The notes below the pieces were generated by a model. It saw nothing but the letters and a program-made list of their open reading frames with translations. It did not search any database and was not told where the DNA came from. Positions 4,077 to 64,000 of a stretch of 64,000 bases of DNA are shown one piece after another. The translations under genes and the position numbers were made by a program. The stretch lies in the IMG/VR virus record IMGVR_UViG_3300013212_000097, positions 1,888 through 65,887 of that record; one strand, written 5' to 3'. The number at the start of each line of letters is the position of its first letter. The first letter of the stretch is position 1. This DNA comes from a virus (Duplodnaviria; Caudoviricetes).

Positions 4077-4931
4077 TTACTGAGATAATAAATTTGTTTC
4101 TGAAGTGATCAATGAATGTAAAGAAAATTGCAATTCAATTGGATAGTTTAAGCCACCAATAGGAATAAATTTAAAACTTTCTTTTTTGTCTTTTTCAACA
4201 TACATGACAACTGAATCAAATTTCTTACCAGCAGGCTTCATATCTGTTATGAATATTTTACCTTTGTTTTCAAAAATAATCAAACCTGATCCCCCTCTCG
4301 GAGAAAAAGAAACTTTCAATATACCAGATTTTTTAGGGTTTATAACCACAACAATATCATTTCCATACTGACCCTTAATCGCTAATGGTATTGGATCTCC
4401 AAGACGAAAACTTGCCAGAATATCATAATCTACTTCTTTATTGATTTCAAAATAATATTTATTTTGATAAAAGGGCAAAGAAGACATTGTTTCATTTGAT
4501 GATCCAAATTTGTAAATTATAGAATCATTTTTTTGAAAATCCCCTTCGATGATTCCTGATATTGTTTCTGATGGATTGAGCACACTCAAACAGTTTAAAA
4601 TTGCATCAAGCGGCTTTGCATACATGAAATTTTTAGTTGCTACAGTTCCAGCTTTTTCAGGTGATTGATCTGAGTAAGATCCTTTCTTGAGATTCTTTAC
4701 TGTTTTTAAAGTATTGATAGTAAAACTTTGTTTTTTATCAGTTCCATTTTTGTAATGATAAAAATACCTTACTCTTGTATTTTGTTTATAATGATTCTTG
4801 TAGATAATTCCAGGTTTTTTTATTGTTTCTGGAGTATTCAAATAAACAAAATGAGTTGATGATGCGTGAAATAGATATAAAGCAGTCAAAAGAGCTTTAA
4901 TTGATAAAAGAAATTTAGTAAACAACGCCAT
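4077..4931 (-). CDS. Putative exported hypothetical protein
   Basis: Hydrophobic N-terminus; GGGGGAG RBS. Confidence 0.65.
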   Translation of the reverse strand: MALFTKFLLSIKALLTALYLFHASSTHFVYLNTPETIKKPGIIYKNHYKQNTRVRYFYHYKNGTDKKQSFTINTLKTVKNLKKGSYSDQSPEKAGTVATKNFMYAKPLDAILNCLSVLNPSETISGIIEGDFQKNDSIIYKFGSSNETMSSLPFYQNKYYFEINKEVDYDILASFRLGDPIPLAIKGQYGNDIVVVINPKKSGILKVSFSPRGGSGLIIFENKGKIFITDMKPAGKKFDSVVMYVEKDKKESFKFIPIGGLNYPIELQFSLHSLITSETNLLSQ

Positions 4932-4982
4932 TGTTATCTCCCCCTAAAATAACCTTAACATTAAAATATTATTCGAGTTTGT

Positions 4983-5007
4983 AGGGCTAGAACACTGTAT
5001 TTGAGAA
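4983..5007 (+). promoter_or_regulatory. Putative phage late promoter AGG-N18-AGAA
   Basis: Identical spacing at 4983, 11740, 50770, 52935; GGG variants at 35302 and 36019. Confidence 0.55.
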
Positions 5008-5043
5008 AAAAACAGATAGTGTATATTATTTACAGGGATAAAA

Positions 5044-31585: not shown

Positions 31586-31682
31586 ATTAGTAAATTTCAT
31601 ATTTAGTTTTGTAGTTGCATTTGCGATTATCACAATTCTAAAAGTTGCATGTGATTAGAATTATGGTATAATAATTTTGTAG

Positions 31683-31756
31683 CGCGGGATGGAGCAGTTT
31701 GGTAGCTCGGTAGTCTCATAAATTACAGGTCGAGGGTTCGAATCCCTCTCCCGCAC
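31683..31756 (+). tRNA. tRNA-Met(CAT) with initiator-like acceptor stem
   Basis: CGCGGGA/TCCCGCA with C1:A72 mismatch; GTAGT-ctCATaa-ATTAC; GGTTCGAATCC; no encoded CCA. Confidence 0.88.
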
Positions 31757-31761
31757 GATGG

Positions 31762-32042
31762 TCCAACTTAGCTCAGCGGTAGAGCAATCGGCTGTAAACA
31801 GATAGCAGCTTATTAGAGTAATTTAATATAGAAAATTGTCGAAATTCAGTGAAAACTAAGTCGAAAGATATGTCAACACTGAGCCAAGCCTGTAAGGGAA
31901 GGTGCAGAGACTATAATGACGACATCCTACTAGGTAATGCTAAGGATGATGGTATAGTCCAGACTACAAACAGATTATCTGGTAGTGAAAACTATAGTAG
32001 TAAGTAACCGATCGGTCGCTGGTTCGATCCCAGCAGTTGGAG
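31762..32042 (+). tRNA. tRNA-Asn(GTT), intron-containing (exons 31762-31795 and 32005-32042)
   Basis: TCCAACT/AGTTGGA acceptor; spliced arm ATCGG-ctGT|Taa-CCGAT; GGTTCGATCCC. Confidence 0.9.
31796..32004 (+). ncRNA. Group I self-splicing intron, IC3-like, 209 nt, no ORF
   Basis: P1 GGCTGT/GCAGCT with U.G at the splice site; P4 TCAGTG/CACTGA; R GAAGGTGCAGAGACTA; P8 CATCCT/AGGATG; S GGTATAGTCC; terminal G. Confidence 0.92.
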
Positions 32043-32046
32043 TTTT

Positions 32047-32119
32047 GGTCTGTTAGTCGAGTGGTTAAGATGTCTCCCTTTCACGGAGAAGACCAGGGGT
32101 TCGATCCCCCTACAGACTA
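32047..32119 (+). tRNA. tRNA-Glu(TTC)
   Basis: TCTCC-ctTTCac-GGAGA; GGTTCGATCCC; GGTCTGT/ACAGACT. Confidence 0.92.
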
Positions 32120-32197
32120 TAATGACTCTTTTGCTTAATTGCAAAGGAGTTTTTTTATTTAAGTACGTATAATAATAATGGTGTTCAGTTCGAATGA

Positions 32198-32971
32198 ATG
32201 TCATTAGGAGAATTTATGAGAAATTGTTTAAAATGCAACAATAAAATTCCATTTAGTATGGTTATAGATGGAAAAGTAAGAAAATTTGATAAAAGAAAAT
32301 ATTGTTTGGATTGTTCACCTTTCGGATTACATAACACAAGAAGTTTGCAAAATGATGACACAAGAGTTGTTATGAAGATTTGTGAAATTTGTGAAAGAGA
32401 ATATCAAGGTGGACATAGAAAACATAAAGATAAATGTGGTAGATGCTATAGTTTAGCCTATAGGACTAAAACAAAAGAAAGAGCTATTGAATATAAAGGT
32501 GGAGCTTGTTCAGTTTGTGGTTATAAAAAATATATTGGCTCTTTGCATTTTCATCACGTATATCCAGAAACTAAATCATTTAATATCGGTGAAATTAATT
32601 TTAGAAAATTTGACCTTATTGTTGATGAATTAGATAAGTGCATTTTAGTGTGCTCTAACTGCCACGGAGAAATACACGCTGGGCTTGTTGATGCTAAAGA
32701 AATTTTTAATTTTCAACAAGCAACATTTCCAAAATATATTAAAGAAATAAAACCAGAAAAATTCTATCAACCCGTCATAAAAATCTCAAGAAGACCAGAT
32801 AAAGAAATTTTGCAAAAATTAGTCTGGGAAATGTCTTGTGTAAAGATTGGAGAAATGTATGGAGTAAGTGATAATGCTGTCAATAAATGGTGCAAAATCT
32901 ATGGTATTTCTAAACCTGGCAGAGGAGATTGGGAAAAACTTAAGGCTGGAAAAATTGACAAACCTGAATAA
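32198..32971 (+). CDS. Free-standing HNH homing-endonuclease-like protein with Zn ribbons and C-terminal HTH
   Basis: GGACSVCGY...LHFHH...CILVCSNCHGEIH; IGEMYGVSDNAVNKW. Confidence 0.85.
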   Translation: MSLGEFMRNCLKCNNKIPFSMVIDGKVRKFDKRKYCLDCSPFGLHNTRSLQNDDTRVVMKICEICEREYQGGHRKHKDKCGRCYSLAYRTKTKERAIEYKGGACSVCGYKKYIGSLHFHHVYPETKSFNIGEINFRKFDLIVDELDKCILVCSNCHGEIHAGLVDAKEIFNFQQATFPKYIKEIKPEKFYQPVIKISRRPDKEILQKLVWEMSCVKIGEMYGVSDNAVNKWCKIYGISKPGRGDWEKLKAGKIDKPE

Positions 32972-32982
32972 ATGGGTACAAT
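32955..32982 (+). promoter_or_regulatory. Sigma70-like promoter for tRNA-Gln/Thr
   Basis: TTGACA-16-TACAAT. Confidence 0.65.
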
Positions 32983-32998
32983 CTAAATGTAAGAATAT

Positions 32999-33070
32999 TC
33001 CCCTGTAGTGAAACTGGCATCACATCAGTTTTTGGAGCTGAAATTCCTTGATCGTACTGAGGCGGGGGAA
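32999..33070 (+). tRNA. tRNA-Gln(TTG) with atypical T-loop
   Basis: TCCCCTG/CGGGGGA; TCAGT-ttTTGga-GCTGA; T-loop ATCGTAC. Confidence 0.7.
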
Positions 33071-33082
33071 TCTTACTAATTT

Positions 33083-33156
33083 GCCTCTGTAGCTCAAAGG
33101 TATAGCAATGGTTTTGTAAACCATTTTAATTGCAAGTTTGATTCTTGTCGGAGACT
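33083..33156 (+). tRNA. tRNA-Thr(TGT), degenerate or pseudo
   Basis: ATGGT-ttTGTaa-ACCAT; acceptor mismatch; T-loop TTTGATT. Confidence 0.55.
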
Positions 33157-33179
33157 TCCTCTATTTATGGAAAAATACA

Positions 33180-33401
33180 ATGTCACTTAGCGAAGCTTTA
33201 ATTGATTTAAAACAAAATAAGATTATAAGAAGAATTCATTCAAACACTTCTTATAGCTTTGATGTTAATACCAAAAAGTTTGGTATGATGATAAAATACA
33301 ATGTTCACGAAGGTGTGAAGTATGATATCAAATATGCAGAACGAGATACTATTAGTTTTTATGCTGATGATCTTTTGGCTGACGATTGTATAGTAGAATA
33401 A
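33180..33401 (+). CDS. Divergent DUF2829/Tad2-like protein
   Basis: MSLSEALIDLKQNKIIRR...DDLLADDCIVE. Confidence 0.5.
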   Translation: MSLSEALIDLKQNKIIRRIHSNTSYSFDVNTKKFGMMIKYNVHEGVKYDIKYAERDTISFYADDLLADDCIVE

Positions 33402-33755
33402 ATGACAAAAGTACAAGCCGACGAAATTAAAAATAGAATAGAAGATATAAACAAAAGATATGCTCCTATTAAATTAAGATTTGGTATGTATCCAAGTCTT
33501 CATCCTTATGATGATGACAATTGGTTTGTAACTATAGTTTACAATTACACTGAAAATGAATGGATGACATTTTTTGGTATGATTCATAGTTACGCTCAAG
33601 TGATGGATCAACTTTCAGGATATGGGTTTGCAATGGAAGCAGTGCAAGCTTACAATGAAGAATATGGTTCATTAAATCTAGACAAAACTCCACCAAAAGA
33701 AAATGTTCAATCTGAAAGAGTTCCTGAGTCTGATGAATGGTGGCATCAGTCATAA
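33402..33755 (+). CDS. Hypothetical protein
   Basis: 117 aa ORF. Confidence 0.65.
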   Translation: MTKVQADEIKNRIEDINKRYAPIKLRFGMYPSLHPYDDDNWFVTIVYNYTENEWMTFFGMIHSYAQVMDQLSGYGFAMEAVQAYNEEYGSLNLDKTPPKENVQSERVPESDEWWHQS

Positions 33756-34071
33756 TGTGATATAATAAACATATGAACGAAACTATTTTATTATCAATTT
33801 TATTTGCTTTAGTAGCAATTTTATTCGTCATGTTATTTGTCATAATTTTTCAGATTAAAAAAATCTTGAAATCTTACGATAATAATTTTGAAACATTGAA
33901 TAAAAAGACAGCGAAAATTGTGGAGTAGATATGAATATTATTACTGCAACTTGGATTAACTGTTCTATTATTTTTGTATCTGTTATGGCATTTTCTCTCT
34001 ATATGAATTATCGTTTAAATAGATTGATTAAGATGTTGGACGGTTTGATTACAGATAGACCCGAATAAACT

Positions 34072-34389
34072 ATGAATGAACGCGAGTGGGTTGAAAAAAT
34101 TAAAAAAGAATGTGTATTGAATATTGGTAATTTTGACACTAAATATGCTATTCAATTAATTGGTAGATCTGGAAGTAAAATTGGAATTGTTTCTTTAAAT
34201 AAAAAATTCACAAGTGTGGATATTATTGACAAAGAAAAATATGAAAAGTTTTATGACAATTTCTATTCAAGAAATAATAAAGAAGCTCGTGTCCCATTAG
34301 TTATCGATTATCATTTACAACATACGATTGGTAAAAATGGTTTTAATGAACTTTGGAATTTTTACTACAAAAAAATAAAGCCAAAGTGA
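34072..34389 (+). CDS. Hypothetical protein
   Basis: 105 aa ORF. Confidence 0.6.
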   Translation: MNEREWVEKIKKECVLNIGNFDTKYAIQLIGRSGSKIGIVSLNKKFTSVDIIDKEKYEKFYDNFYSRNNKEARVPLVIDYHLQHTIGKNGFNELWNFYYKKIKPK

Positions 34390-34402
34390 AAAGGAAAATA
34401 TT

Positions 34403-34675
34403 ATGGATGTAACTACACAAATATTGACATGGATTCTTGTCCTGCTTATTGCATATGGTTGTGCAGTTTGGGCAAATAGAAAAGGTTATAGTTTTTGGAT
34501 TTGGTTGTTTGGTGGAAGTTTACTGGGAGCTGTAACTCTTTTATTCATGCCTAATGTAAATGATTTAGAAGAAGATAAACGAGCCAAGCAAATTAACACT
34601 GGAAATACTGCTGGAATTATATTAGCAGTTGCATCATTTGTTTGGGGATTCGCTCAAGGGGTTTACAAGCCTTAA
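34403..34675 (+). CDS. Small membrane protein
   Basis: Hydrophobic helices, A..KGYSF..W; AAGGA RBS. Confidence 0.7.
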   Translation: MDVTTQILTWILVLLIAYGCAVWANRKGYSFWIWLFGGSLLGAVTLLFMPNVNDLEEDKRAKQINTGNTAGIILAVASFVWGFAQGVYKP

Positions 34676-34676
34676 C

Positions 34677-34706
34677 AAAAAAGGGGAGATTTTCTCCCCT
34701 TTTTTT
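34677..34706. terminator. Bidirectional terminator
   Basis: AAAAAAGGGGAG-loop-CTCCCCTTTTTT. Confidence 0.85.
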
Positions 34707-35112
34707 AATCATCACATTCTATATAATATCCATCATCATCTGGAAGAGTTACATTATCTTCTATTTTTGCACTAAAAAAACAATATGACAAGCTTGAGTG
34801 AGCAATCAATAGTTTCATAAATGTTTCATATAAAGAAGAATCTGTGCAATAAGGTGTGTGAAATTGAAGTACTTTGTCATAATTTAAAAGAATAAATTGT
34901 TGATTATTAATACTCACAATATAAAATTTATTTAGACTTGTATCAACGGAAAATGCTTGAAGTCCTGGAACATTTTTCTTAAGCATTTCCCAATCTACTC
35001 CTAGATTGTTTTGAGCTGGAAAAATACTTCTTCCCCATTCTTTCAATGTGAAGATTTTTTCAATATCATATGAAGATTGTCTTGGTAAATTGTAAATATC
35101 TTTTATTTTCAT
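34705..35112 (-). CDS. Hypothetical protein
   Basis: Probable start MKIKDIY; the longer track ORF overlaps the tRNA-Arg promoter. Confidence 0.55.
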   Translation of the reverse strand: MKIKDIYNLPRQSSYDIEKIFTLKEWGRSIFPAQNNLGVDWEMLKKNVPGLQAFSVDTSLNKFYIVSINNQQFILLNYDKVLQFHTPYCTDSSLYETFMKLLIAHSSLSYCFFSAKIEDNVTLPDDDGYYIECDD

Positions 35113-35139
35113 TTCACTAATATTATACCTAAGAAGTGT

Positions 35140-35167
35140 TTGACATTGATGAAAAAGTTGGTATAAT
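35140..35167 (+). promoter_or_regulatory. Sigma70-like promoter for tRNA-Arg
   Basis: TTGACA-16-TATAAT with extended TG. Confidence 0.75.
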
Positions 35168-35201
35168 AGTTTTGTAAGTTGAAATGATGGCATTTGAATA
35201 T

Positions 35202-35275
35202 GCACCAGTAGCTCAGTTGGATAGAGTAGCAGGTTTCTACCCTGTTTGTCGGGGGTTCGAATCCCTCCTGGTGTA
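35202..35275 (+). tRNA. tRNA-Arg(TCT)
   Basis: GCACCAG/CTGGTGT; GCAGG-ttTCTac-CCTGT; GGTTCGAATCC. Confidence 0.93.
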
Positions 35276-35336
35276 TTATAATATCCCCTAATGAAAATTA
35301 GGGGATATTTTGTTTATGTTCTAGAATATATTCTTT

Positions 35337-49400: not shown

Positions 49401-50369
49401 TTATCTTACAGGATTGCCAAACTGATCAAGAATACTTTGCCCAGTTGGGTAATAGCTTTTACCCCATAAGAAATTGTTTGGATTGATTGTTGTATCAAAC
49501 TTGAAGAACTTTGCATGACCATCTGCAAATACATAATTAGAACCACCAGTGTGTCTGCCTGGTTCCATAAAACGAGTGTGATATCCAGTATCCGCTGATA
49601 CAGATCTGCAACCACCTGTGCCGTTTGAACTTGTTGAATCTGATCCACCACCCCAACCAAGAGCGCCTTCAGCTTCAAACTTTGTGATTGCAAAGATTGG
49701 ACCTGTTGCATCTGCAAAGTTCTGTCCAGCCCACTGACCGCCACTTGCTGTACGCATCATGGCGTTAACTGGTCTGTGACTCTTATTGCGCTTTTCAGTA
49801 TTAAGTTGACCAGTTGAACCAAGAAGGATGCAGTTGAGGTTACTGGTCATTTCTGCAATAGCAATAACATCTGCAGGAGCATCAACAGAAGCGATTGCAA
49901 CAATGTTTGGTGCATCTTGTGGACCACGCTTACGCGGAAGAACTGCAGAGTTTGGAATGTAAGAAAGACGAGGAACTTGTGCTTCACAACCAAGTGTCAC
50001 AACATCTAACCAGTTTGCACATGGTGGGTTGTCAGGACGAACACCCTTGTTAGGATCTGATGGACAAACCCAAACTTGCTCATTCTTGATATAAGGATGA
50101 ATCATAGCTGTGAAGTGGACATAACCACCAGAAGAACCACCATTAGTAGTAGCAGTATTGTTCTTATAGAAATAAGCAGTTGGATAAGTCTCATCATAAT
50201 CTTGGGTATACATCATGAGACCTAAACCAATTTGCTTTTCATTTGACAAACAACTAGCAGAACGAGCCTTGTCACGAGCCTGTGCAAAAACAGGGAAGAG
50301 GATAGCTGCCAAAATCGCAATGATAGCGATGACAACAAGTAATTCAATTAAAGTAAAAGCTTTTTTCAT
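49401..50369 (-). CDS. Prepilin-type N-methylation / DUF1559 / H-X9-DG protein
   Basis: [29 protein letters not shown]...CLSN.KQ; [14 protein letters not shown]. Confidence 0.93.
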
Positions 50370-52015: not shown

Positions 52016-52933
52016 ATGGATAACAGACAAATAATATCATCTCTCAATGAACTCGCTAATGAACTTGATCAATGCGGTCAATACAAATTTAGTGAAGAGA
52101 TTGACAATTTAATAAGAATAGCTATATTACATGGTCATGGACCTAAATTAAGATATAACCATCCAGCGGTAGGTGACCTCAAAAGAAAAGAGCTAGAACC
52201 ACTACCGCCACAAAATTTAATAGAAAAAGTATTTCAAGAATTCGCTGGATATGGAAAACCATTACCAAAATCATTTTATGATTTTTTAAATCCATTAGAA
52301 TGGAATATTGATGATTTTCTTGATGATGTCCTACAATATTATAAAGAAGATAATACTATAAGTATGGATTTTATTAAACTTATTACATCTTCTTCCGAAT
52401 TTGTAAAAAAATTAGACTTAAATCTGAAAAATAGAAACAAAATACCTGTGTTTGAGCCTGTTTATACTTTTCAGGAAAAACCAGAAGTTTTCAAAAAAAT
52501 TCTACAAGAGGGTGAAAACGAACTTATAAAATCATTGGAAAAAGAATTCAAAAAATTAAAAGAATTAATTGTTTATAATCCAAACACTAGAATAAATAAA
52601 GTGGTACCTGCTCTGCTAGAAATTAGAGAATTATTACCACCTAAATTCTTAGCATATGTAGAAGCTGTAAATGAATGGTTAGATTATCAAAATAATGCTG
52701 AAAATGAAATGTTTGAAAAACAAGACATGCTTCATGATAACTTTAGATCAGAAGCCCGCGCTAGAGAAGAATTAGAGAATCGTCTAAATCCAAAAGAAGA
52801 AGAAGAAAAATGGTCAGTGCTTTCAAAATACACAATCAATAAACTTTACAAAATAGCCAACTCATTAGATGAAGCTAATCTTTATAAACAAGCTAGCTCA
52901 GTTACTAATCTTATGAAAAGAATAGCAAAATAA
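52016..52933 (+). CDS. Protein with the helical tag at both termini
   Basis: RQIISSLNELANELD...RIA and KLYKIANSLDEANLYKQASSVTNLMKRIAK. Confidence 0.7.
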   Translation: MDNRQIISSLNELANELDQCGQYKFSEEIDNLIRIAILHGHGPKLRYNHPAVGDLKRKELEPLPPQNLIEKVFQEFAGYGKPLPKSFYDFLNPLEWNIDDFLDDVLQYYKEDNTISMDFIKLITSSSEFVKKLDLNLKNRNKIPVFEPVYTFQEKPEVFKKILQEGENELIKSLEKEFKKLKELIVYNPNTRINKVVPALLEIRELLPPKFLAYVEAVNEWLDYQNNAENEMFEKQDMLHDNFRSEARAREELENRLNPKEEEEKWSVLSKYTINKLYKIANSLDEANLYKQASSVTNLMKRIAK

Positions 52934-52990: not shown

Positions 52991-53437
52991 ATGAATAAAA
53001 GACAAATTATATCTTCTTTGAACAAGATAGCAAATGAACTCGACTCAGCATCATTGTTCGTAGAAGCAAACACTGTTACCAAAGTGATGACAAAAATTGC
53101 TCAAGCACCAAGCGATTTTACAGGCGATTTTACCTCCAAATATGATTCTAAAGAAATAGGAAGAAATATTGTCAAAAGCTTATCAGAATTAATTATCAAA
53201 AAGCTACAAGGTAAAGAAGAAGCAAGACAATATTTTAGTGGTGGTAATTTACAATCATTTGTATTAGATATTTTAGATAAATCTATTGAAGATTATAAAG
53301 AAGCTATGCAACAAATGGAATTAATGCTTGAGAAATATCAAACAGGTTTTAATGAACCTGATTATAAAATACTCAATGGTCTAATAAATAATTGGAAAAG
53401 TTATAAAAATGCACAAAGTAGGGAGATGGGATTATGA
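52991..53437 (+). CDS. Helical-tag hypothetical protein
   Basis: MNKRQIISSLNKIANELDSASLFVEANTVTKVMTKIAQ. Confidence 0.7.
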   Translation: MNKRQIISSLNKIANELDSASLFVEANTVTKVMTKIAQAPSDFTGDFTSKYDSKEIGRNIVKSLSELIIKKLQGKEEARQYFSGGNLQSFVLDILDKSIEDYKEAMQQMELMLEKYQTGFNEPDYKILNGLINNWKSYKNAQSREMGL

Positions 53438-53933: not shown

Positions 53934-54422
53934 ATGAATAAAAGACAAATTATAGCATCACTTGCAAATGTAGCTGAAAGCTTTGAAAACAGCCATGAAA
54001 TTCTTTTAGCTAATGAAATTAATCTCTTAATGACTAAGTTAGCAGAAAAAGAAGAAGACTGCCCAGAAGCAACACAAAACGTCAAACTAAACCTTAAAAA
54101 TAGACAAAAAGGTATTGATGAACAAGGTTATGGACCAGCAGACCCTTCACAACCTAATGACAAATTCTGGAAAAAGAAAATGGAAATGTGGAAAGTAGAT
54201 GAGCTGTCAGAAGTGAAGAACATGCTTTGTGGAAACTGTGCTGCATTTGATATCACTTCAAAAACATTGGACTGTATAGAAAAAGGCATAGGAGAAGAAG
54301 CCACAGAAACCATAAACGCTGGAAAACTTGGCTACTGTAAATTTCTCAAATTCAAATGCGCATCCAAAAGAACTTGCGATGCTTGGGTGACAGGCGGACC
54401 AATCACTGACAAAAAGAAATAA
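53934..54422 (+). CDS. Helical-tag protein with Cys-rich domain
   Basis: CPEAT...YGP...CGNCAAF...LGYC...FKCA..RTC.AW..GGP. Confidence 0.7.
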   Translation: MNKRQIIASLANVAESFENSHEILLANEINLLMTKLAEKEEDCPEATQNVKLNLKNRQKGIDEQGYGPADPSQPNDKFWKKKMEMWKVDELSEVKNMLCGNCAAFDITSKTLDCIEKGIGEEATETINAGKLGYCKFLKFKCASKRTCDAWVTGGPITDKKK

Positions 54423-54697: not shown

Positions 54698-55395
54698 AAA
54701 ATTACTTAACAATAACCAGCCAAAAAGGATGGTTATAAATTCCCAATTTCGAAAAATCTAAGCCACCCCCCCTATACTCCAAAATTACTTAACATAAACC
54801 AGACAAAAGGGATGGTTGTTTTTTTTTTTTTTTTTTTAAATTTAACCACCCCCCCCTCAATCACAAAAATTTATAATTTTAAACTTGACAAAAGGGATGG
54901 TTAGTTTTTCTGGAAAATGAAAAAATCTAAGCCACCCCCCCTATACTCCAAATAAATTTGTTACCACTAATGTCTCATAATGTAATGTGTTTCTATAAGG
55001 CATACCGTAATGATCCAAAGCTACATGATAAATAAATAAAATATAATTACAATCCTTCAATTGTAAATCATAATCATAATCCATGTTACCAAATGATACA
55101 GTTTTATTTTCTTCTAAATGCATAGATAAAACATAAGACAAAAACTCTTCTTTGAATATTTGTAAACCATCTGTCATATAAATATTTTCCCAAAATTATT
55201 AATATATACCAGGGCAAAAAGGATGGTTATTCCTGGGGGAAATTGAAAAAACTTAACCACCCCCCCCCATACCTAAAAAAATAGCCCTCGATAGATGAAG
55301 GCATGTGCTTTTTAATTGACGGGGGTGCGGATCCAGATGGGACCCAAAATGTTTTACCACCCCCCCTACCTGGAGAATTACCACCCCCCTATACA
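54698..55395. repeat. Noncoding repeat cluster GGATGGTT-N~25-(A/G)CCACCCCCC
   Basis: Four full units (about 54726, 54808, 54894, 55221) plus two lone TTACCACCCCCC half-sites (about 55354, 55378). Confidence 0.85.
54941..55177 (-). CDS. Hypothetical protein embedded in the repeat cluster
   Basis: 78 aa ORF; its stop codon lies in a repeat arm. Confidence 0.45.
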   Translation of the reverse strand: MTDGLQIFKEEFLSYVLSMHLEENKTVSFGNMDYDYDLQLKDCNYILFIYHVALDHYGMPYRNTLHYETLVVTNLFGV

Positions 55396-55755
55396 CTATA
55401 AACAATACTGTACAGGTATATGATTATAACATAACAATGACATAGAAGCTAAAGAATTATATTTATCATCCCTAACCACTGGATTATCTAAACAAAATAT
55501 ATCTTCCCTGTAAATAGTTTTCCAAATATGTTTAGCTACATCTGGCTCCACTATTATTATTGTATCATGTTCTTGGATAGGAAGATACTTAATCTCTTTT
55601 ATATTGTAGGTTTTAATGCTCAAATCTTTATGCAAATCTACAGGCTGCTTGTCAACTACTAATCTTGCTGCAAAGCCTTGTGGGAATATTGTTTGCCATT
55701 GATTGTTTATCCACAATGCAATCACATGGTCTGTCTTATTTAGTATCTTTACCAT
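55396..55755 (-). CDS. NLTPH-family-like protein, possible Crn4-like ring nuclease
   Basis: ILNKTDH.I, P.G..AR, LP.....IIIV, REDI, VVRDD. Confidence 0.45.
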   Translation of the reverse strand: MVKILNKTDHVIALWINNQWQTIFPQGFAARLVVDKQPVDLHKDLSIKTYNIKEIKYLPIQEHDTIIIVEPDVAKHIWKTIYREDIFCLDNPVVRDDKYNSLASMSLLCYNHIPVQYCL

Positions 55756-55814: not shown

Positions 55815-56087
55815 TTAACCACAATCCCTAAAATATTCATACTTGCCACCTGTTTCACTGGATGCTATAGCTAACATTTCTTCCCAGGTACAATAATAGC
55901 CTACCATAGTGTTTAACACTTTGGAAACTATTTCCCATTTTCTAGCAGTGTGTTCATCTTTAAATACAGCTAGGGCATCACCATCTTTGAACTTAGCATG
56001 CTTGCCATTTAAAGGATTTACAAATAAGAATACATCTGGGGGTAATGGTAATCTATTTTGTAATTCAATAGGGAGTTCTTTCAACAT
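55815..56087 (-). CDS. Hypothetical protein
   Basis: TATAAT immediately upstream. Confidence 0.6.
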   Translation of the reverse strand: MLKELPIELQNRLPLPPDVFLFVNPLNGKHAKFKDGDALAVFKDEHTARKWEIVSKVLNTMVGYYCTWEEMLAIASSETGGKYEYFRDCG

Positions 56088-56100
56088 TTAATTATACCGT

Positions 56101-56220
56101 AAAATAATTTTTGCCAAACATATATGTCGTGGTAAAAAACAGAATACCACGCGAAATTTTTTTGTCAAATTAAAAAATTAAATAAAAAACCCTTGACTTT
56201 TGTCAAGGGAGATGGTAGTT
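56101..56220 (+). repeat. Composite palindromic element, copy 1
   Basis: CGTGGTA/TACCACG, TTTGTCAAATTAAAAAATTAAATAAAAAA, CCCTTGAC/GTCAAGGG. Confidence 0.85.
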
Positions 56221-56371
56221 AGTCGATTACATCCCAGCCTTCAGGACATGGGCTTTCTTCTTCTTCTTCAATGTCCAAGTCTTCATCCACAAAGTCTTCC
56301 AACAAGTCTAGTGGGTCAATGTCTACGCTAGGGAAGATTCGTGCTTCCATTTCTGCTTCTAAGTAATCCAT
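56219..56371 (-). CDS. Highly acidic 50-aa protein (not in the ORF track)
   Basis: MDYLEAEMEARIFPSVDIDPLDLLEDFVDEDLDIEEEEESPCPEGWDVID; AGGA RBS and promoter upstream. Confidence 0.65.
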   Translation of the reverse strand: MDYLEAEMEARIFPSVDIDPLDLLEDFVDEDLDIEEEEESPCPEGWDVID

Positions 56372-56421
56372 TATCCTATCTCCTTACTAGTAGTATAATC
56401 CAAGCTTCCTATATTGTCAAA

Positions 56422-56727
56422 TTATTTCTTTACTATAATAGGAAAATCTTTGTTACTGCTGAATTCTTCAAAACCTTTGTCGGTAATAATAACTTGGTAC
56501 AAATGGTTTGTATCACCAACAGTGTATTCCAATGTGCTGGAAAGCTTTACAATGTTATCTGTCTTAATAAGTGGTTGCATGGCTTCTACTACAAACATTC
56601 GCAAGTTTTCAATTGTAAGATTGTAGATATAAGATGTTTCAAGGTTAGCATGAAATTCATTGGTCTTTTCAGGTGTTGCCACGCACACTACCATAGACTT
56701 TATAATCGGTTTCAGTTCAAGCTTCAT
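56422..56727 (-). CDS. Hypothetical protein
   Basis: TTGCAT...TATACT upstream. Confidence 0.65.
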   Translation of the reverse strand: MKLELKPIIKSMVVCVATPEKTNEFHANLETSYIYNLTIENLRMFVVEAMQPLIKTDNIVKLSSTLEYTVGDTNHLYQVIITDKGFEEFSSNKDFPIIVKK

Positions 56728-56831
56728 GGATTAAGTATATCCCAAGATACACTATATGCAAGTTAATTAGTGTAATATTTTTTTATAAAATATACCTTGC
56801 TTTTGGGTAAACTAGGCTGTAATATATAGAC

Positions 56832-57032
56832 ATGAACAGTAACACTAAAGTTGAAGTTGAAGAGCCAACCGGTCAGATGCATTTTTTCAAGTTGGGACAA
56901 ATTGGAGTCAATGAATCGATGTCCGAAGCAGATATCATTGCTCGCTTAGGTCGGAGCATCTACACGGATAAGTTCAAGTATACTTATCACCAATCACACA
57001 ACCTGCTACTAGTCAAAACCCTAGCAGGCTAG
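56832..57032 (+). CDS. Hypothetical protein
   Basis: TTGCTT...TAATAT upstream; ends at element hairpin. Confidence 0.65.
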   Translation: MNSNTKVEVEEPTGQMHFFKLGQIGVNESMSEADIIARLGRSIYTDKFKYTYHQSHNLLLVKTLAG

Positions 57033-57160
57033 TTACCACATCCCTTGTCAAAAGTCAAGGGATATTTTTTTATTTTTTTAATTTGACAGTTATAAAAATC
57101 GGCGGTTTTTGCTGCTACCGCCGAAAAATATTTTCAGCAAATTTATTTTTTTCCTTGACA
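57033..57160 (-). repeat. Composite palindromic element, copy 2 (inverted)
   Basis: TCGGCGGT/ACCGCCGA at 57099-57124; CCCTTG/CAAGGG at 57042-57061. Confidence 0.85.
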
Positions 57161-57203
57161 ATATTGTTAAACTATGATAGCTCCCCTTTCGGGGAGCCTT
57201 TTA

Positions 57204-57338
57204 TCAGATTGTTTCCAAGTAATCTTTAGCAGTAGTTTCAGAGTTGAAGTATTTAACAATCTGGTAATTTCCATCTTCCATCACTTGCACAACGTACCAG
57301 AATTTGTCATTACAGTTGAATTGGAAAAGTTTGTACAT
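57204..57338 (-). CDS. Small hypothetical protein (44 aa, not in the ORF track)
   Basis: MYKLFQFNCNDKFWYVV...; coupled to a 30-aa hydrophobic ORF at 57338..57430. Confidence 0.5.
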   Translation of the reverse strand: MYKLFQFNCNDKFWYVVQVMEDGNYQIVKYFNSETTAKDYLETI

Positions 57339-57515
57339 TACTTCTTCTCTTTATTTAAAGTCAGGGTTGACAGCAGACCGAGAAACAAAACAACGATTCC
57401 GAAAATGTTCAAAATGATGATTGGATTCATGTTTATATTATAAGCCAAAGATAAGGGTAATGCAAATTATATTTTAAATTAAAAGTCCCTTGATGTAAAT
57501 CAAGGGATATAGTGT

Positions 57516-57680
57516 TTAGTCTTCTTGGAAGTGCTGAGATTCACAGTAGGAATCCCATCTTTCATATGCAAGTGAAAGAGCATTTTCCATCAGGTCTTCT
57601 TGTGACATCTCAGGGTCTTGCTTTGACAGTTCCTGATAGGCTTGGGTGACGAAGAGTGAAAACATTGGGTGGTCGTTCAT
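57516..57680 (-). CDS. Small acidic protein (54 aa, not in the ORF track)
   Basis: MNDHPMFSLFVTQAYQEL...; TTGCAA...TATACT upstream; CCCTTGA/TCAAGGG hairpin downstream. Confidence 0.6.
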   Translation of the reverse strand: MNDHPMFSLFVTQAYQELSKQDPEMSQEDLMENALSLAYERWDSYCESQHFQED

Positions 57681-57793
57681 GTATTAAGTATATCCTATAT
57701 TCTACTTATTGCAAGTAATTCAGATAATGTAGATCTACAATTATTTTTTCTCCTAAGTGTGGCATTATGGTGTAAATTTGGTATACTGATGTC

Positions 57794-58048
57794 ATGAGCA
57801 AGATATACCGAATGATTTTAGGTCAAGACCCTACCAGCACAAGACCGATTGGGACTGAAAAAACTCTTAAGGAAGCAAAAGAATATATCTTATCTCGTGC
57901 ATACAACAATGATTATTGTGCAATCTATGTAGCAGACAATGAAAACCCTGCTGGCGAATTGGTTGGACGTTGGATTGTAAAGAATAAGAAGCTTACATCG
58001 TTTGAAAAAAAATCAAAACCAATTGATTATAAAAAAGTAATATTTTGA
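57794..58048 (+). CDS. Hypothetical protein
   Basis: TGGTATACT just upstream of ATG. Confidence 0.65.
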   Translation: MSKIYRMILGQDPTSTRPIGTEKTLKEAKEYILSRAYNNDYCAIYVADNENPAGELVGRWIVKNKKLTSFEKKSKPIDYKKVIF

Positions 58049-58070
58049 CAGTTATATATAAGGTGAAACT

Positions 58071-58316
58071 ATGAACAAACACAACGGCTGGTACAACAAG
58101 ATGACTTGGCATATCAATGTTTCCTATATGGGAGCAATGGAAGATATGGTAAAGGCTGGCGGAACAAGTGATATCAAATGGCACATCCAGAATGAATTAA
58201 CAAAAGGCTTGTCCAGAGAACAGCGAGACATAATGTGGTGTTCTTTTGAACTGATTGACTGGGACGTTCTCATTGAAAGAGCCACAGAGAATGTTGAAAA
58301 GGAAAAGGCAGCTTGA
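58071..58316 (+). CDS. Hypothetical protein
   Basis: NGW.N..TW...IDW pattern; terminator near 58365. Confidence 0.65.
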   Translation: MNKHNGWYNKMTWHINVSYMGAMEDMVKAGGTSDIKWHIQNELTKGLSREQRDIMWCSFELIDWDVLIERATENVEKEKAA

Positions 58317-58401
58317 GATATGATGCAAACTGCATAGCACTACCATATGTTTGAATAGTTGTCAAGCTCCCCCGCAAGGGGAGCTATCACACTTTAATGT
58401 G

Positions 58402-58538
58402 TTTGTCAAGAAAAAAAATAAATTTGCTAAAAATATTAGTCGGCGGTACTAGCCGGAAATACCGCCGATTTTTGTTCTTGTCAAATTAAATAATTTAATA
58501 AAAAACCCTTGACTTTAAATCAAGGGCTGTGGTAAAAT
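58402..58538 (+). repeat. Composite palindromic element, copy 3
   Basis: TCGGCGGTA/TACCGCCGA at 58440-58468; CCCTTGA/TCAAGGG. Confidence 0.9.
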
Positions 58539-58545
58539 GTAAGGT

Positions 58546-59022
58546 TTAGGCTAGAGACTCTATATTCTCTACGCTCACCGCTACAAAAAGTGCTTGACCT
58601 TTTTCTTCGGTCTCCTCCTTGGAGGGCTTGGTAGCATATTCTGATGCTAGCAGAGCGTCCTTGACATCATCAAGGTTTACAGGCTCACCGTTGCGATACC
58701 ATTGTGCCTTGGATGGATTTCCAGTCACGCACACTGGCAGGTAGAGGTTGCCATTCTTAACATTACGCCAAAAGCGCATACCTTCAATCTCAATGGATTC
58801 CGCCCAAACTGGCATCATTGGCGTATCACGCTCTCCGGCTACTACAGCATCCTTCACAGGCTTGCGGTTGGAATATTCTGCCAGCATACCTTGGAATACC
58901 GATACTTTGGTGATGTTATCTGCAACGCCCTTGCGAACCTTGCCGGGACGGTTTACCTTCACAGAGTAGAATGAACCGCCTTGCTTTGCGGTCAGGATTC
59001 GTGCGATTTCAGTTACGTTCAT
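58546..59022 (-). CDS. Hypothetical protein, visibly higher GC
   Basis: 158 aa; GAGGGG RBS; TTGACT...TACTAC promoter. Confidence 0.75.
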   Translation of the reverse strand: MNVTEIARILTAKQGGSFYSVKVNRPGKVRKGVADNITKVSVFQGMLAEYSNRKPVKDAVVAGERDTPMMPVWAESIEIEGMRFWRNVKNGNLYLPVCVTGNPSKAQWYRNGEPVNLDDVKDALLASEYATKPSKEETEEKGQALFVAVSVENIESLA

Positions 59023-59103
59023 TGTATTATCCCCTCTAACAATAGTAGTATACGGCAGGTTTTACCCAAAGTCAAATATATTAAGGTAATAAACTAGAGT
59101 TGA

Positions 59104-59439
59104 TTATTTGTTGCAACCTTTCACAAGGGTTTTGAATTCGTAGATGTATGTGGTTTCAATCTCATATGCACCAGACTCCTCAATGGCTTTCTTGAGAGCC
59201 TGTGCCGATACCTCAGTCATCATCTCTTTTTGCACCATGGAATTTACGGCTTTGATTACATGGGTTGCAAGAAACTGAAACCTTATCATTGTGGGGATTG
59301 TCACTTTTGTATGAATGAGATGAGGAACCTTGAAAGGCTCTACAAGGAACTCTTCCAGATTGTCGATATCTGGACAGAACTCCATATCTACCGACTTTGT
59401 CGCATCAAACAAACTAACCGTCTTAAGTGTTTCTACCAT
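59104..59439 (-). CDS. Hypothetical protein
   Basis: 111 aa; GGGAG RBS. Confidence 0.65.
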   Translation of the reverse strand: MVETLKTVSLFDATKSVDMEFCPDIDNLEEFLVEPFKVPHLIHTKVTIPTMIRFQFLATHVIKAVNSMVQKEMMTEVSAQALKKAIEESGAYEIETTYIYEFKTLVKGCNK

Positions 59440-59578
59440 GTCTCTATCTCCCTTACGCTATTATTATATCGTAATTACACTATATAGCAAAAAAAAGTGT
59501 AAAAACATTATAACTATATCTTAAGTATTTAGTATCATGCTTATTTTAGTTTGTCAAGCACTACCACATAAAAAAATA

Positions 59579-59715
59579 TTTGTCAAGAAAAAAAATAAAT
59601 TTGACAGATATATTTATCGGCGGTAAATACGGTTAAAACCGCCGCATTTTATTTTTGTCAAATTAAAAAATTAAATAAAAAAACCCTTGACAGGAGCCAA
59701 GGGATGTGATAGATG
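59579..59715 (+). repeat. Composite palindromic element, copy 4
   Basis: AATTTGACA...CGGCGGT/ACCGCCG...TGTCAAATT; CCCTTG/CAAGGG. Confidence 0.9.
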
Positions 59716-59723
59716 GGAGGTGG

Positions 59724-60092
59724 TTACTCTGCTGGTGGCAGGGTAACTTTGAGAATGGTTTGCAGAGCGTACAGGGTATCTCTGGTAGCACGGATGGTAT
59801 TCTCAGATTGTGACAGTTTAGACTTTGCTATGATAATCTTGGTTTCTGCAACCTGTACAGACTTTACATCTTCCACCAGCAATGTGGCAAGGTGTGCTTT
59901 GCGGGTTGCTTCGTTTGAACCTTGCACAAGACCATCTGCGTAAAGGGTTGCGGTCTTGGATTCAAGCATATTTTCTGCGTCAAGCTTCTCAAGTGTGAGA
60001 GTTGTAACCAAAGCTTGATTCTTGTTTACAACCAAGGTCTGCTTGGCGATGTTGTCGATTGAGGTGGTGAGTTGGTCAATAAGTGTTTGCAT
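59724..60092 (-). CDS. Coiled-coil hypothetical protein
   Basis: G.NE..RKA motif; GGAG RBS. Confidence 0.7.
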   Translation of the reverse strand: MQTLIDQLTTSIDNIAKQTLVVNKNQALVTTLTLEKLDAENMLESKTATLYADGLVQGSNEATRKAHLATLLVEDVKSVQVAETKIIIAKSKLSQSENTIRATRDTLYALQTILKVTLPPAE

Positions 60093-60239
60093 AGTGTCTT
60101 CTCCGTCTGTGATGTCTTATTATAAGCCAAGTTTCTACCATATGCCAATGAATTGGATAAAGATTTAAATAATTGTTTATTACCTTAAATGCTGGCAAGC
60201 TCGTGTAAATTTGATATACTTAAGGCGTAAGGGAGAACG

Positions 60240-60452
60240 GTGATGACAAGAACAAAGATGACGTTTGAAGACAAGACATATGCGCGTGAGATGTTTCTCC
60301 AAGAGTATATGATTCGAACAGAAGTGTATCTGGAATTTGACTTTCACAATGAACAGTCTAGAATCACGCTTATCAAACAAGCACACCAAGAATTGAAAGA
60401 AAAGCTTAAGAAGGTTGATGAAGAGTACAAGGCTATCAACGCAGGTAAGTAA
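60240..60452 (+). CDS. Hypothetical protein
   Basis: GGGAG RBS; TATACT upstream. Confidence 0.6.
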   Translation: MMTRTKMTFEDKTYAREMFLQEYMIRTEVYLEFDFHNEQSRITLIKQAHQELKEKLKKVDEEYKAINAGK

Positions 60453-60509
60453 TCGCTGGCTATGTCCCCTGAAACATGGGGACATTCTTCCAATATAATA
60501 GGTGATATA

Positions 60510-60725
60510 ATGTCAAAGTATACTAAAGTTTTCTTCTCTGTTGCTGTTGTATGTCAAATAATCTTGTTGGCTGTGCTTAATGACTCTAAAGTTACAAATA
60601 ACACTTATAATATTGAATTTTCTACTTTATTTACGATTATAACGTGTTCTGTAGCATCAATGTTGTATATTTTTGTTGGTTTTGCATCTTATAACCAAGA
60701 TAAACAATTTGCTAATATAAAGTAA
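60510..60725 (+). CDS. Small membrane protein
   Basis: Two hydrophobic helices; probable start MSKY. Confidence 0.55.
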   Translation: MSKYTKVFFSVAVVCQIILLAVLNDSKVTNNTYNIEFSTLFTIITCSVASMLYIFVGFASYNQDKQFANIK

Positions 60726-60742
60726 ACAGTTGCCCTATCATG

Positions 60743-60852
60743 AGCCTTGACAAAAGTCAAGGCTTTTTGGCTTTAAAAAATAAATTTGACAAAAATATTT
60801 TTCGGGGGTTTTCTGGCTAGTACCCCCGAGAATTGGTTTTAGCAAAAAAAAG
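60743..60852 (-). repeat. Composite palindromic element, copy 5 (inverted)
   Basis: GCCTTGAC/GTCAAGGC; TCGGGGGT/ACCCCCGA at 60802-60829. Confidence 0.85.
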
Positions 60853-60983
60853 AATCGCCAGAATTTTTATCCTGACGATTTTTGTGTTTTAGTTTGCGAT
60901 TGTATTTTGATTTATCTTTAAAAGTTGTGGGTCTCATCTGGCTGGCTCTCATCATTTCTGTACCAGATGCAATGTTTAAGTCT

Positions 60984-61289
60984 TCAACATACTTTTTGCG
61001 TTTCATTCAGCACCTCTAAGTAATTTCCGTTAGTTGCATGACGATTGAAAATATCAACAAATGTTTTATATTGACATTCTTGTATTGAATATTTCAGATT
61101 AAATATATCATGATATGGTGTATCTATCAGTCTTTTGGCGATATATTTAATTAGTAAATTGTTTGCTGTTTTATCTAAGTGAATTCCTGTTACATCTTCA
61201 ATGAGCATATCAAAAGTATTTATATCAAACTGGTCAACGCCTAAACCGTCATTGCTTACCCAGAAAACCATTACGCAAGACATAATCAT
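60984..61289 (-). CDS. Hypothetical protein
   Basis: 101 aa, overlaps upstream ORF. Confidence 0.55.
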   Translation of the reverse strand: MIMSCVMVFWVSNDGLGVDQFDINTFDMLIEDVTGIHLDKTANNLLIKYIAKRLIDTPYHDIFNLKYSIQECQYKTFVDIFNRHATNGNYLEVLNETQKVC

Positions 61290-61723: not shown

Positions 61724-62060
61724 GACGTATTGTATCGGAATATATCAAAAAAGCAAGTGTAAAACAGATAATGTATAGAGGGATATCAGATAGAAAAAAA
61801 CCTTGACTAAATGTCAAGGTCTTCAAATCAATCAAAAATGTAACCGGAGAGACCAAATCTTTTCACAGATTGTTTCAAACCAGCTATTGTTGTTGTGCTA
61901 GTGTAAAGCACATTGTTCACGTAGAGATTAAACATCCCAAATTCTATCTTGACTATTCCTACCATGACATTATTTTATCATGCTCTAAGTGCTGAATCAA
62001 ACAAACATTTTACTTGCATATGAGGATTTACCTGATATACTATAACCAAGGAGAAAAGTT

Positions 62061-63335: not shown

Positions 63336-63557
63336 ATGAAACTTGAACAGGTCTTACCAATGCTCCGTGATGGCAAAACTATCACAAGAAGCAAAAAATG
63401 GAATCCTAATTCTACCACTGTTATCTTAGTTAAGATTGAAGAATCAAAACTTAGATTTAAATGTGTTTGGTCTAGTGGTGAAGAAATGAATTTTTGGGCT
63501 TGTTATAAGTTTACAGCAGAAGATATATTGTCAGAAAATTGGGAGATAGCAGGATGA
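63336..63557 (+). CDS. DUF2829/Tad2-like protein
   Basis: LEQVLPMLRDGKTITR..KW...EDILSENWEI. Confidence 0.6.
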   Translation: MKLEQVLPMLRDGKTITRSKKWNPNSTTVILVKIEESKLRFKCVWSSGEEMNFWACYKFTAEDILSENWEIAG

Positions 63558-63967
63558 CAGAAGAGATTATTCAAAGAATGATGCAAAAACAATACGTAAG
63601 TTCTCTTACCGAAAGAAAAAAAAAATTATTAAATTTAATTTCTCTTACCGAAAGAAGAAAAATATTATTAAATTTAATTGAACAAGAGTGCAATGAAGAA
63701 AAAAAGAAAATTTACAATCATATGCTTCTACAAATCCAACTTGATATAAAATGGGAATCTAGAGTGTCCAGTTTCCTTGAAAAAGAATGGAATGAAAATG
63801 GTTCTCTTGCAACAGAATCAATAATTGTAGAATTAGATAATTTAAAAAGATTTGAAAAAGAAGAACGTGATAGCCACTGGATTGAATGTTTATGTTTGCT
63901 ATTTCCGCCATTAATATTTTTTTTTATACCTTATTGGATTTGGCAAGGGTATCAAAAGGAGAGATAA
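63554..63967 (+). CDS. Hypothetical protein with C-terminal membrane segment
   Basis: Start MTEEIIQRMM; the next gene at 63969 begins identically. Confidence 0.6.
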   Translation: MTEEIIQRMMQKQYVSSLTERKKKLLNLISLTERRKILLNLIEQECNEEKKKIYNHMLLQIQLDIKWESRVSSFLEKEWNENGSLATESIIVELDNLKRFEKEERDSHWIECLCLLFPPLIFFFIPYWIWQGYQKER

Positions 63968-64000
63968 GATGACAGAAGAGATTATTCAAAGAATGATGCA

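Follow-up and report, generated by a model that had tools for sequence, protein, structure and literature searches.

The stretch analyzed here, called the window throughout, comprises 64,000 nucleotides (nt) of a virus record assigned to the Caudoviricetes (IMG/VR IMGVR_UViG_3300013212_000097; bases 1888 to 65887 of 65,887 bp). The record, linear by its classification and rated 18% complete, thus probably represents one part of a phage genome that is much larger. At 56.1 to 60.9 kb, and nowhere else in the window, five copies of a composite hairpin element stand at the edges of small-gene cassettes (Table 1), copies 1 and 4 between tandem genes and copies 2, 3, and 5 between convergent ones. 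A preliminary description, made from the letters of this DNA, had placed the five copies on their strands and given the order of their parts, and both agreed with our sequence and alignment analyses. It had also reported that the small genes between the copies carry their own promoters and that some are richer in G+C: sigma-70-type promoters were indeed found, and the 58- to 60-kb bin had a G+C fraction of 0.40 compared with 0.29 to 0.37 in the other bins (~0.29 to 0.40 across the window).

A covariance model, R1, was built from alignment A3, which combines the five window copies with the five corresponding ones of the closest relative, and it scored the window copies at 121 to 129 bits. All window matches with an E value below 1e-3 fell at 56.1 to 60.9 kb; apart from the five copies, R1 matched only their mirror images on the opposite strand and, weakly, 57417-57519 and a site at 62.7 kb. 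A pattern that joins the right-hand box of the element, across a gap, to the second hairpin matched the window five times and 100 dinucleotide-preserving shuffles not once. The nine-letter right-hand box occurred seven times in the whole record, always within 56163-60791. TTGACA, counted on both strands, was likewise concentrated here, with 22 occurrences in 56001-61000 (4.4 per kb) versus 63 in the other 59 kb (1.07 per kb; Poisson, 6e-8). The pattern also matched once each in two other loci (L004 and L006), in coding-like sequence that was not AT rich and showed no further similarity, and these matches were set aside as chance.

The copies follow one layout. Read in the orientation of the preliminary description, an A-run precedes a −35-type hexamer (TTGACA, TTGCTA, TTGCCA, or TTGCTG) and then 16 to 17 bp, of which the last 6 to 8 make up the left arm of a G+C stem that closes with GGT(A). 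The loop (10 to 13 nt) and the right arm complete this first hairpin (hairpin 1), which is followed after ~10 nt by the box TGTCAAATT, equivalent to TTGACA on the opposite strand, where it lies 16 to 17 bp from the stem top. Beyond the box come an A-rich tract of ~18 to 20 nt, a second hairpin (hairpin 2: CCCTTGAC, 4 to 6 nt, GTCAAGGG), and a short conserved tail. Copies 2, 3, and 4 extend ~45 to 55 nt further left with one more outward-facing TTGACA, copies 2 and 3 ending there in outer hairpins and the extension of copy 4 holding two further TTGACA boxes. Hairpin 1 of copy 4 is flanked by an exact 9-nt inverted pair (59598-59606 and 59656-59664).

Hairpin 2 carries its T-run on the strand opposite to that orientation, and by its stem, its T-run, and its place after a stop codon it reads as an intrinsic (rho-independent) terminator. 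A terminator scan flagged four of the five window hairpins on the strand of the gene that each would end, while the tail of copy 5 just missed the T-run rule; predicted folding energies were −12 to −16 kcal/mol. Among 26 copies (5 from the window, 21 from eight related loci), every one had an open reading frame (ORF) of 49 to 198 amino acids ending within 60 nt on the correct strand, and the sequence of hairpin 2 was invariant across relatives. An antisense promoter formed by the TTGAC of hairpin 2 and the letters that follow was considered and rejected, because the conserved letters amount to a stem extension plus 5 nt with no −10 hexamer. Rfam matched four tRNAs in the window and nothing at the elements.

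How such a terminator is joined to a promoter could be read from the tandem settings of two related loci, L019 and L005. There the order on the gene strand was a stop codon and hairpin 2, a T-rich tract, a −35-type box, 17 bp reaching into a G+C palindrome, a mirror box, ~10 A/T letters, and then a clear promoter, six nt, and ATG; the promoter consisted of a −35 box, 16 to 17 bp with a TGTGA-type extended −10, and TATAAT, TATACT, or TAATAT. The next cassette's clear promoter is therefore taken to be part of the module. In the window, the terminator, AT tract, and −35-type box were present in all five copies, with hairpin 1 occupying the place of the −10, whereas a clear −10 and start directly after the terminator occurred only in one simple unit (hairpin 2, T-rich tract, −35/−10 pair laid out as in L019 and L005, then gene F). 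The outward TTGACA in the left extensions of copies 2 to 4 appears to be a promoter remnant, its −10 spoiled where the neighboring gene is convergent. At window genes C, D, G, and H, the −10 hexamer lies 6 nt before ATG, a leaderless spacing. This layout, which lacks a Shine-Dalgarno sequence, is common in the block and in its relatives (window positions 56727, 56832, 57680, and 57794; L019 positions 4456, 4923, and 5547); other genes of the block carry GGAG-type ribosome sites.

Three central stems had been quoted in the preliminary description as covarying, and this was borne out. The five window copies and their counterparts showed double changes in 5 of 13 predicted pairs, and the wider family, 22 nonidentical copies drawn from the window and from seven loci and lined up by their stem tops, contained 12 distinct stems, in which the six loop-proximal pairs were Watson-Crick in 22/22 and positions 4 to 6 each used three or four pair types. 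Over the 12 stems, 83 of 84 cells paired, compared with 50.9 on average and at most 73 in 5,000 partner shuffles. The stem top was GGT/ACC in 21 of the 22 copies. Loops measured 10 to 13 nt in the window lineage and 2 to 6 nt in other lineages, where the central unit is a near-perfect palindrome of ~22 to 30 bp. A hexamer matching TTGACA in at least five of six letters stood 16 to 17 bp before the stem top in 20/22 copies (11 exact), and a weaker mirror box lay equally far beyond the stem. A search for the same arrangement (hexamer, 16 to 18 bp, G+C stem) gave 14 window matches versus a mean of 1.9 in 30 block shuffles; seven of the 14 were the five copies, and the rest were mostly ordinary terminators.

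Hairpin 1 is also a separable unit. It is missing at the junction of genes G and F in the window and in the related locus L007 but present, within ~60 extra nt, at the homologous junction of L005, and at ~1977-2012 of L005 it adjoins a different terminator hairpin. A T-run follows it in window copies 2 to 4, where it could stop the convergent gene; as a general terminator of the convergent gene it was rejected, since that role fits neither copy 5 nor the relatives.

The modules persist while the genes between them change. R1 was run on 81 sources (the window and 80 loci fetched by a backbone anchor protein), and matches were limited to the window and to loci whose anchor protein was at least 79% identical, about ten related IMG/VR contigs: L005, L007, L008, L009, L012, L015, L016, L018, and L019, with weaker or partial matches in L014 and L017. 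The 67 loci with anchor proteins 50 to 71% identical (L020 to L086) gave no match. The covariance-model scan envisaged in the preliminary description, extended to relatives, thus delimited a family restricted to close loci and strong in covariation. Backbone genes p162, p119, and A were common to all relatives, and p53 was detected in 5 of 13 loci. Of the ~20 genes downstream of A, relatives share only a few: homologues of G, H, I, U, R, and F turn up here and there, with order and strand changed. None of the 10 cassette proteins tested had a Pfam or a PHROG match.

Against the closest relative (~88 to 91% identical to the window), an identity profile in 50-bp steps placed the five modules at 0.88 to 1.00. 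Identity dropped gradually over B-C (0.68 to 0.88) and was lower in the 3' half of D (56900-57000; 0.68 to 0.76), the stretch before copy 3 (0.52 to 0.73), and N (60550-60740; 0.64 to 0.76); it reached 0.51 to 0.54 in gene E, versus 0.92 to 1.00 on either side, and 0.24 to 0.49 in the K cassette. Two replacements, of E and of K, end at module edges. The E replacement begins at the outer hairpin of copy 2 and stops where F ends, and contigs of 4 runs carried 135 or 151 other letters in its place. The K replacement starts slightly upstream of the J promoter and stops at the first base of the copy 4 extension; there the closest relative has an unrelated gene for 103 amino acids on the opposite strand, after which comes an outer hairpin resembling those of copies 2 and 3, and the ~70 nt of promoter, ribosome-binding site, and start before that gene match those of K at 86% in inverted orientation. 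Gene order across the copies is accordingly not invariant, and K is replaced in reversed orientation at an element boundary. The preliminary description had named invariant gene order and nonsignificant covariation as grounds for refuting it, and neither applies.

Short-read contigs (4 runs, 4 studies) end or start at 56160-56188, 57069-57098, 59653-59681, and 60851-60883. Summed contig depth was highest over hairpin 2 of copy 2, and the loose contig ends beside it continue into several other hairpin-1 variants and other genes. Because repeats break short-read assemblies anyway, these contigs show shared modules with varied partners but no rate of exchange. Contig joints between copies (for example, 56178 to 59599 and 57074 to 58402) were examined as deletions, inversions, or circles and rejected, their sides being 20 to 47 letters at 85% likeness within repeats. 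Outside the five copies, a segment of ~250 nt at 61007-61258, present in the window and L007, did not align with L088, a small replacement.

We consider it probable that the copies are PeSL-like (PeSL, promoter-early stem-loop) terminator/promoter boundary modules of a hypervariable small-gene block, which also furnish homology for cassette exchange. Reading along the gene that is ended, a module would offer a conserved intrinsic terminator, an AT-rich tract, a TTGACA-type box, hairpin 1 (centered where the −10 of that box would be), and a mirror TTGACA-type box; it would finish in the next cassette's sigma-70-type promoter or, if the neighbor is convergent, in a degraded promoter and the neighbor's own terminator. 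Modules of this kind would insulate cassettes transcriptionally. Since cassettes that are otherwise unrelated have no sequence in common but the modules, these may also supply homology for general recombination by which cassettes are replaced, deleted, or flipped, a role proposed for PeSLs. The record encodes SbcCD-like, RusA, and PD-(D/E)XK nucleases. The block of small genes is probably read early by the host polymerase, a suggestion drawn only from its host-type promoters.

PeSLs are small composite terminator/promoter elements in which an AT-rich tract and a stem-loop with a family-typical stem lie just upstream of a sigma-70-type promoter (PMC4122927). According to the two papers that describe them (Arbiol et al. 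2010, PMC2839356; Comeau et al. 2014, PMC4122927), PeSL cassettes belong to T4-type myoviruses, the elements cluster in hyperplastic regions beside differential ORFans, degraded half-copies occur, and recombination between PeSLs was shown by mini-circles. The likeness drawn in the preliminary description holds: both elements are composite terminator/promoter-type sequences with an AT-rich tract and sigma-70-type boxes at 17-bp spacing, both have a stem-loop with a family-specific conserved stem and cluster between ORFans of a hypervariable region, and both are tied to insertions, replacements, and degraded half-copies between close relatives. Here, too, the modules stand in a hypervariable region, their neighboring ORFans vary from one close relative to another, gene content changes at the copies or next to them, with the E and K replacements ending at module edges, and degraded outward promoter remnants are found in copies 2 to 4. 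The present modules differ in having an extra covarying G+C palindrome and a mirror −35-type box between terminator and promoter, in several genes being leaderless rather than preceded by a Shine-Dalgarno sequence, and in coming from a phage whose available part shows no T4 hallmark. Three of the five copies, moreover, lie between convergent genes, so that no gene follows them.

Several observations weigh against this reading. The would-be −10 at hairpin 1 is TA..TA or loop sequence without the final T of the region's clear promoters, and in relatives no T-run follows hairpin 1 on either strand; hairpin 1 is hence neither a convincing promoter core nor a convincing terminator there, and the PeSL model leaves it unexplained. 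Divergence also starts inside genes, in the 3' half of D, in N, and in the gradual drop over B-C. The coincidence of breakpoints with modules is partly built in, because alignments resume and short-read assemblies break at repeats, and the relatives sampled represent two levels of divergence only. No T4 hallmark was among the families matched (65 of the 95 window ORFs scanned, in a record rated 18% complete), and no RNA run was among the 24 listed holders of the stretch. For hairpin 1 itself, a symmetric RNA-polymerase-binding or insulator unit ranks first, a structure-prone recombination hot spot second, and a small mobile palindrome third.

Other explanations share parts of this evidence. 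A central palindrome acting as a structure-specific break or crossover site, cut by the phage's SbcCD-like, RusA, or PD-(D/E)XK nucleases, or else as a tiny mobile palindrome, is rather unlikely in our estimation, though if true each cassette edge would be a programmed exchange point, and the phage would hold a recombinase-free, integron-like cassette exchanger atop a PeSL-type terminator/promoter. The mobile version taken by itself, which we regard as unlikely, sees the ~60- to 70-bp central unit (box, G+C palindrome, mirror box) as a nonautonomous, Correia- or REP-like palindrome inserted between terminators and promoters, its promoter-like ends being incidental or outward reading. The unit does behave as an indel at the G-F junction (absent from the window and L007, present in L005), its neighbor in L005 is a different terminator hairpin, and copy 4 has inverted ends, exact in that copy only; against these stand the lack of clear target-site duplications, on which the flanks are uninformative because they are A/T runs, the confinement of the copies to one 5-kb block instead of a scatter, and a stem that varies within one genome at a fixed distance from both boxes, which suggests function in place over recent copying. 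Nor was any transposase-type gene noticed (IS200/Y1 families were not searched). REP/BIME and Correia elements are short hairpin-forming intergenic repeats at gene ends, sometimes with promoter-like ends, which occur genome-wide in hundreds of copies, some mobilized by known transposases. The present copies resemble them as short hairpin repeats at the ends of tandem or convergent genes but differ in being confined to one phage block with fixed geometry to terminator and promoter. It is about as doubtful that the modules are purely regulatory, alike through local cassette duplication, and that recombination is no commoner there than elsewhere: every part has a plausible transcriptional reading and some divergence edges lie inside genes, yet the modules persist around cassettes that are mutually unrelated and for the most part missing from relatives, the edges of two replacements coincide exactly with those of modules, and metagenome contigs join one hairpin 2 to several partners.

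The preliminary description had offered a cassette shuffling or inversion system as one of two readings. A dedicated system of this kind, in which the hairpins would be folded sites for a site-specific recombinase or invertase in the manner of integrons or shufflons, we regard as quite improbable. Integron cassettes are promoterless and face one way, their attC sites have bulged bases, and an IntI tyrosine recombinase adjoins the array. Hairpin 1 resembles attC as a folded inverted repeat at the end of a small cassette that keeps structure over sequence, cassettes are flanked by copies in either orientation, a relative has one cassette reversed, and hairpin 2 is as invariant as a core site would be. 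But neither Phage_integrase (PF00589) nor Resolvase (PF00239) had a match in the 65.9-kb record, itself rated 18% complete, whereas the PF00589 search was positive in 14/14 control genomes, and no integrase was found in this incomplete fragment. The attC analogy fails on structure as well: the cassettes here come with promoters and terminators of their own and occupy both strands, the stems of hairpin 1 are uninterrupted Watson-Crick helices with no extrahelical bases, and the second hairpin is sequence invariant with a T-run. The inverted homology of the reversed cassette is a promoter segment with no hairpin, and the invariance of hairpin 2 is equally expected of a terminator family spread by duplication. 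Least credible to us is the other reading of the preliminary description, which nothing observed here requires: an array of loading or binding sites for a DNA-binding protein, such as an early-promoter repressor or a nucleoid protein recognizing TTGAC-type half-sites, with the hairpins as by-products of palindromic operators. TTGAC-type words do occur in inverted pairs at several spacings per module, invariant amid varying surroundings. Their conservation, however, has a simpler explanation, because they are identical to the host-type −35 hexamer in the clear promoters of the region; a sequence-specific site cannot reside in the part of hairpin 1 that varies with compensation, and no candidate binding protein was identified.

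For the polymerase-binding role ranked first for hairpin 1, the nearest comparison is the symmetric bidirectional promoter, described as having reciprocally paired −11 A and −7 T and divergent starts ~18 bp apart (Warman et al. 2021, summarized in PMC10268837). Judged by that summary, the central unit shares a pseudo-symmetric core between opposed −35-type hexamers (each 16 to 18 bp from the stem here), to which polymerase could bind either way. It differs in that the short-loop copies have a 6-bp TA..TA core with no −7 T on either strand, a 6- to 14-bp G+C stem flanks the core, and the −7 T is missing in most copies.

In the papers found by our searches, PeSLs were described in T4-type myoviruses, and other phage groups received passing mentions at most. 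The same PeSL-type design in an unrelated-looking, widespread freshwater lineage would mean portable, insulated ORFan cassettes bounded by regulatory repeats, and it would support the idea that large phages generally exchange accessory genes in this way. The PeSL description includes no palindrome that is maintained by compensating changes and keeps a fixed distance to opposed −35-type boxes, and this extra palindrome is a testable object for how cassette boundaries get insulated or broken.

Table 1. Coordinates of the element copies, related hairpins, and cassettes (positions in the window; + and −, strand)
Feature	Position	Strand	Score or method	Remarks
Small-gene cassettes between copies	56219-60725			B-C / D, E-F-G / H-I, J-K, L / M-N; 36-158 amino acids
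Copy 1	56106-56222	+	R1, 121.2 bits	between tandem minus-strand genes B (56219-56371) and A (55815-56087)
Copy 1, hairpin 1	56128-56151
Copy 1, right box	56163-56171
Copy 1, hairpin 2	56190-56209		minus-strand terminator scan, 56209-56190
Copy 2	57029-57197 (core 57029-57145)	−	R1, 127.2 bits
Copy 2, hairpin 2	57042-57061			ends gene D (56832-57032, +)
Copy 2, hairpin 1	57099-57124
Copy 2, extension	57146-57197			TTGACA box 57155-57160
Copy 2, outer hairpin	57180-57197			adjoins convergent gene E
Gene E segment	57201-57321	−		other alleles in relatives; edge abuts outer hairpin of copy 2
Simple unit	57455-57515	+	repeat family D2	hairpin 2 and promoter, no central stem
Simple unit, hairpin-2-type terminator	57486-57508			ends gene G
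Simple unit, −35/−10	57466-57437	−		precedes gene F
Copy 3	58366-58539 (core 58419-58539)	+	R1, 124.8 bits
Copy 3, outer hairpin	58366-58384			after gene I (58071-58316, +)
Copy 3, hairpin 1	58440-58468
Copy 3, hairpin 2	58506-58526			ends gene J (58546-59022, −)
Gene K cassette	59090-59578	−		right edge is left edge of copy 4
Copy 4	59552-59716 (core 59596-59716)	+	R1, 128.6 bits
Copy 4, hairpin 1	59618-59644
Copy 4, hairpin 2	59684-59703			ends gene L (59724-60092, −)
Copy 5	60731-60880 (core 60731-60850)	−	R1, 122 bits
Copy 5, hairpin 2	60744-60763			ends gene N (60462-60725, +)
Copy 5, hairpin 1	60802-60829
Terminator-like hairpin adjoining copy 5	60853-60880		terminator scan	serves convergent minus-strand genes
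Seventh hairpin-2-type terminator	61801-61819	−		same stem letters, no central stem; ends ORF 61828-61965 (−)

The source is an uncultivated, widespread freshwater phage lineage. Twenty public DNA runs from 10 studies contained ~0.4 to 0.5 of the sampled words of the stretch, labeled as lake, river, estuary, runoff, freshwater metagenome, or plain "metagenome." Among 50,697 phage records of INPHARED there was no close DNA match to the window and no relative of cassette protein J, for which the ESM Atlas likewise gave no usable match. A metagenome scan with p119 as the query returned two near-identical relatives only; L007, L087, and L088 are nearly one lineage, L088 being 98% identical to L007. 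Families recognized among the window ORFs included, besides the SbcCD-like nuclease pair, RusA, and the PD-(D/E)XK nuclease, an HNH endonuclease, a DNA methylase, Fic, glycosyltransferases, a GH108 endolysin, an M23 peptidase, and a prepilin-type DUF1559 protein.

Several further features lie near the cassette block or elsewhere in the window and its relatives. Just upstream of the block, 54698-55400 holds four or more direct repeats of ~84 nt with runs of 8 to 9 C, each with a GGATGGTT..AACCACCCC inverted pair and one with a run of 19 T. Three consecutive genes before these repeats (52016-52933, 52991-53437, and 53934-54422) share an N-terminal module of ~35 amino acids, which the first repeats at its C terminus; relatives have several more genes with this start, and the family is widespread, with 228 relatives confirmed by tblastn in IMG/VR. 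In L005, though not in the window, the p119 and p53 homologues are separated by an ORF of 391 amino acids (4420-5595) that encodes four zinc-finger-like repeats and an endonuclease-like tail and has the look of a homing-type insertion. Identical 33-nt sequences stand in direct orientation at 63553-63585 and 63968-64000, 415 nt apart; as the second copy is at the record end, either a tandem duplication or an edge effect of assembly could account for them. The 3.6 kb at 31682-35276 contain five tRNA genes (Met, Glu, Gln, Thr, and Arg). Finally, the protein encoded at 49401-50369 on the minus strand combines a prepilin N-methylation motif with a DUF1559 domain, a pairing typical of Planctomycetes-type bacteria, and may thereby hint at the host.

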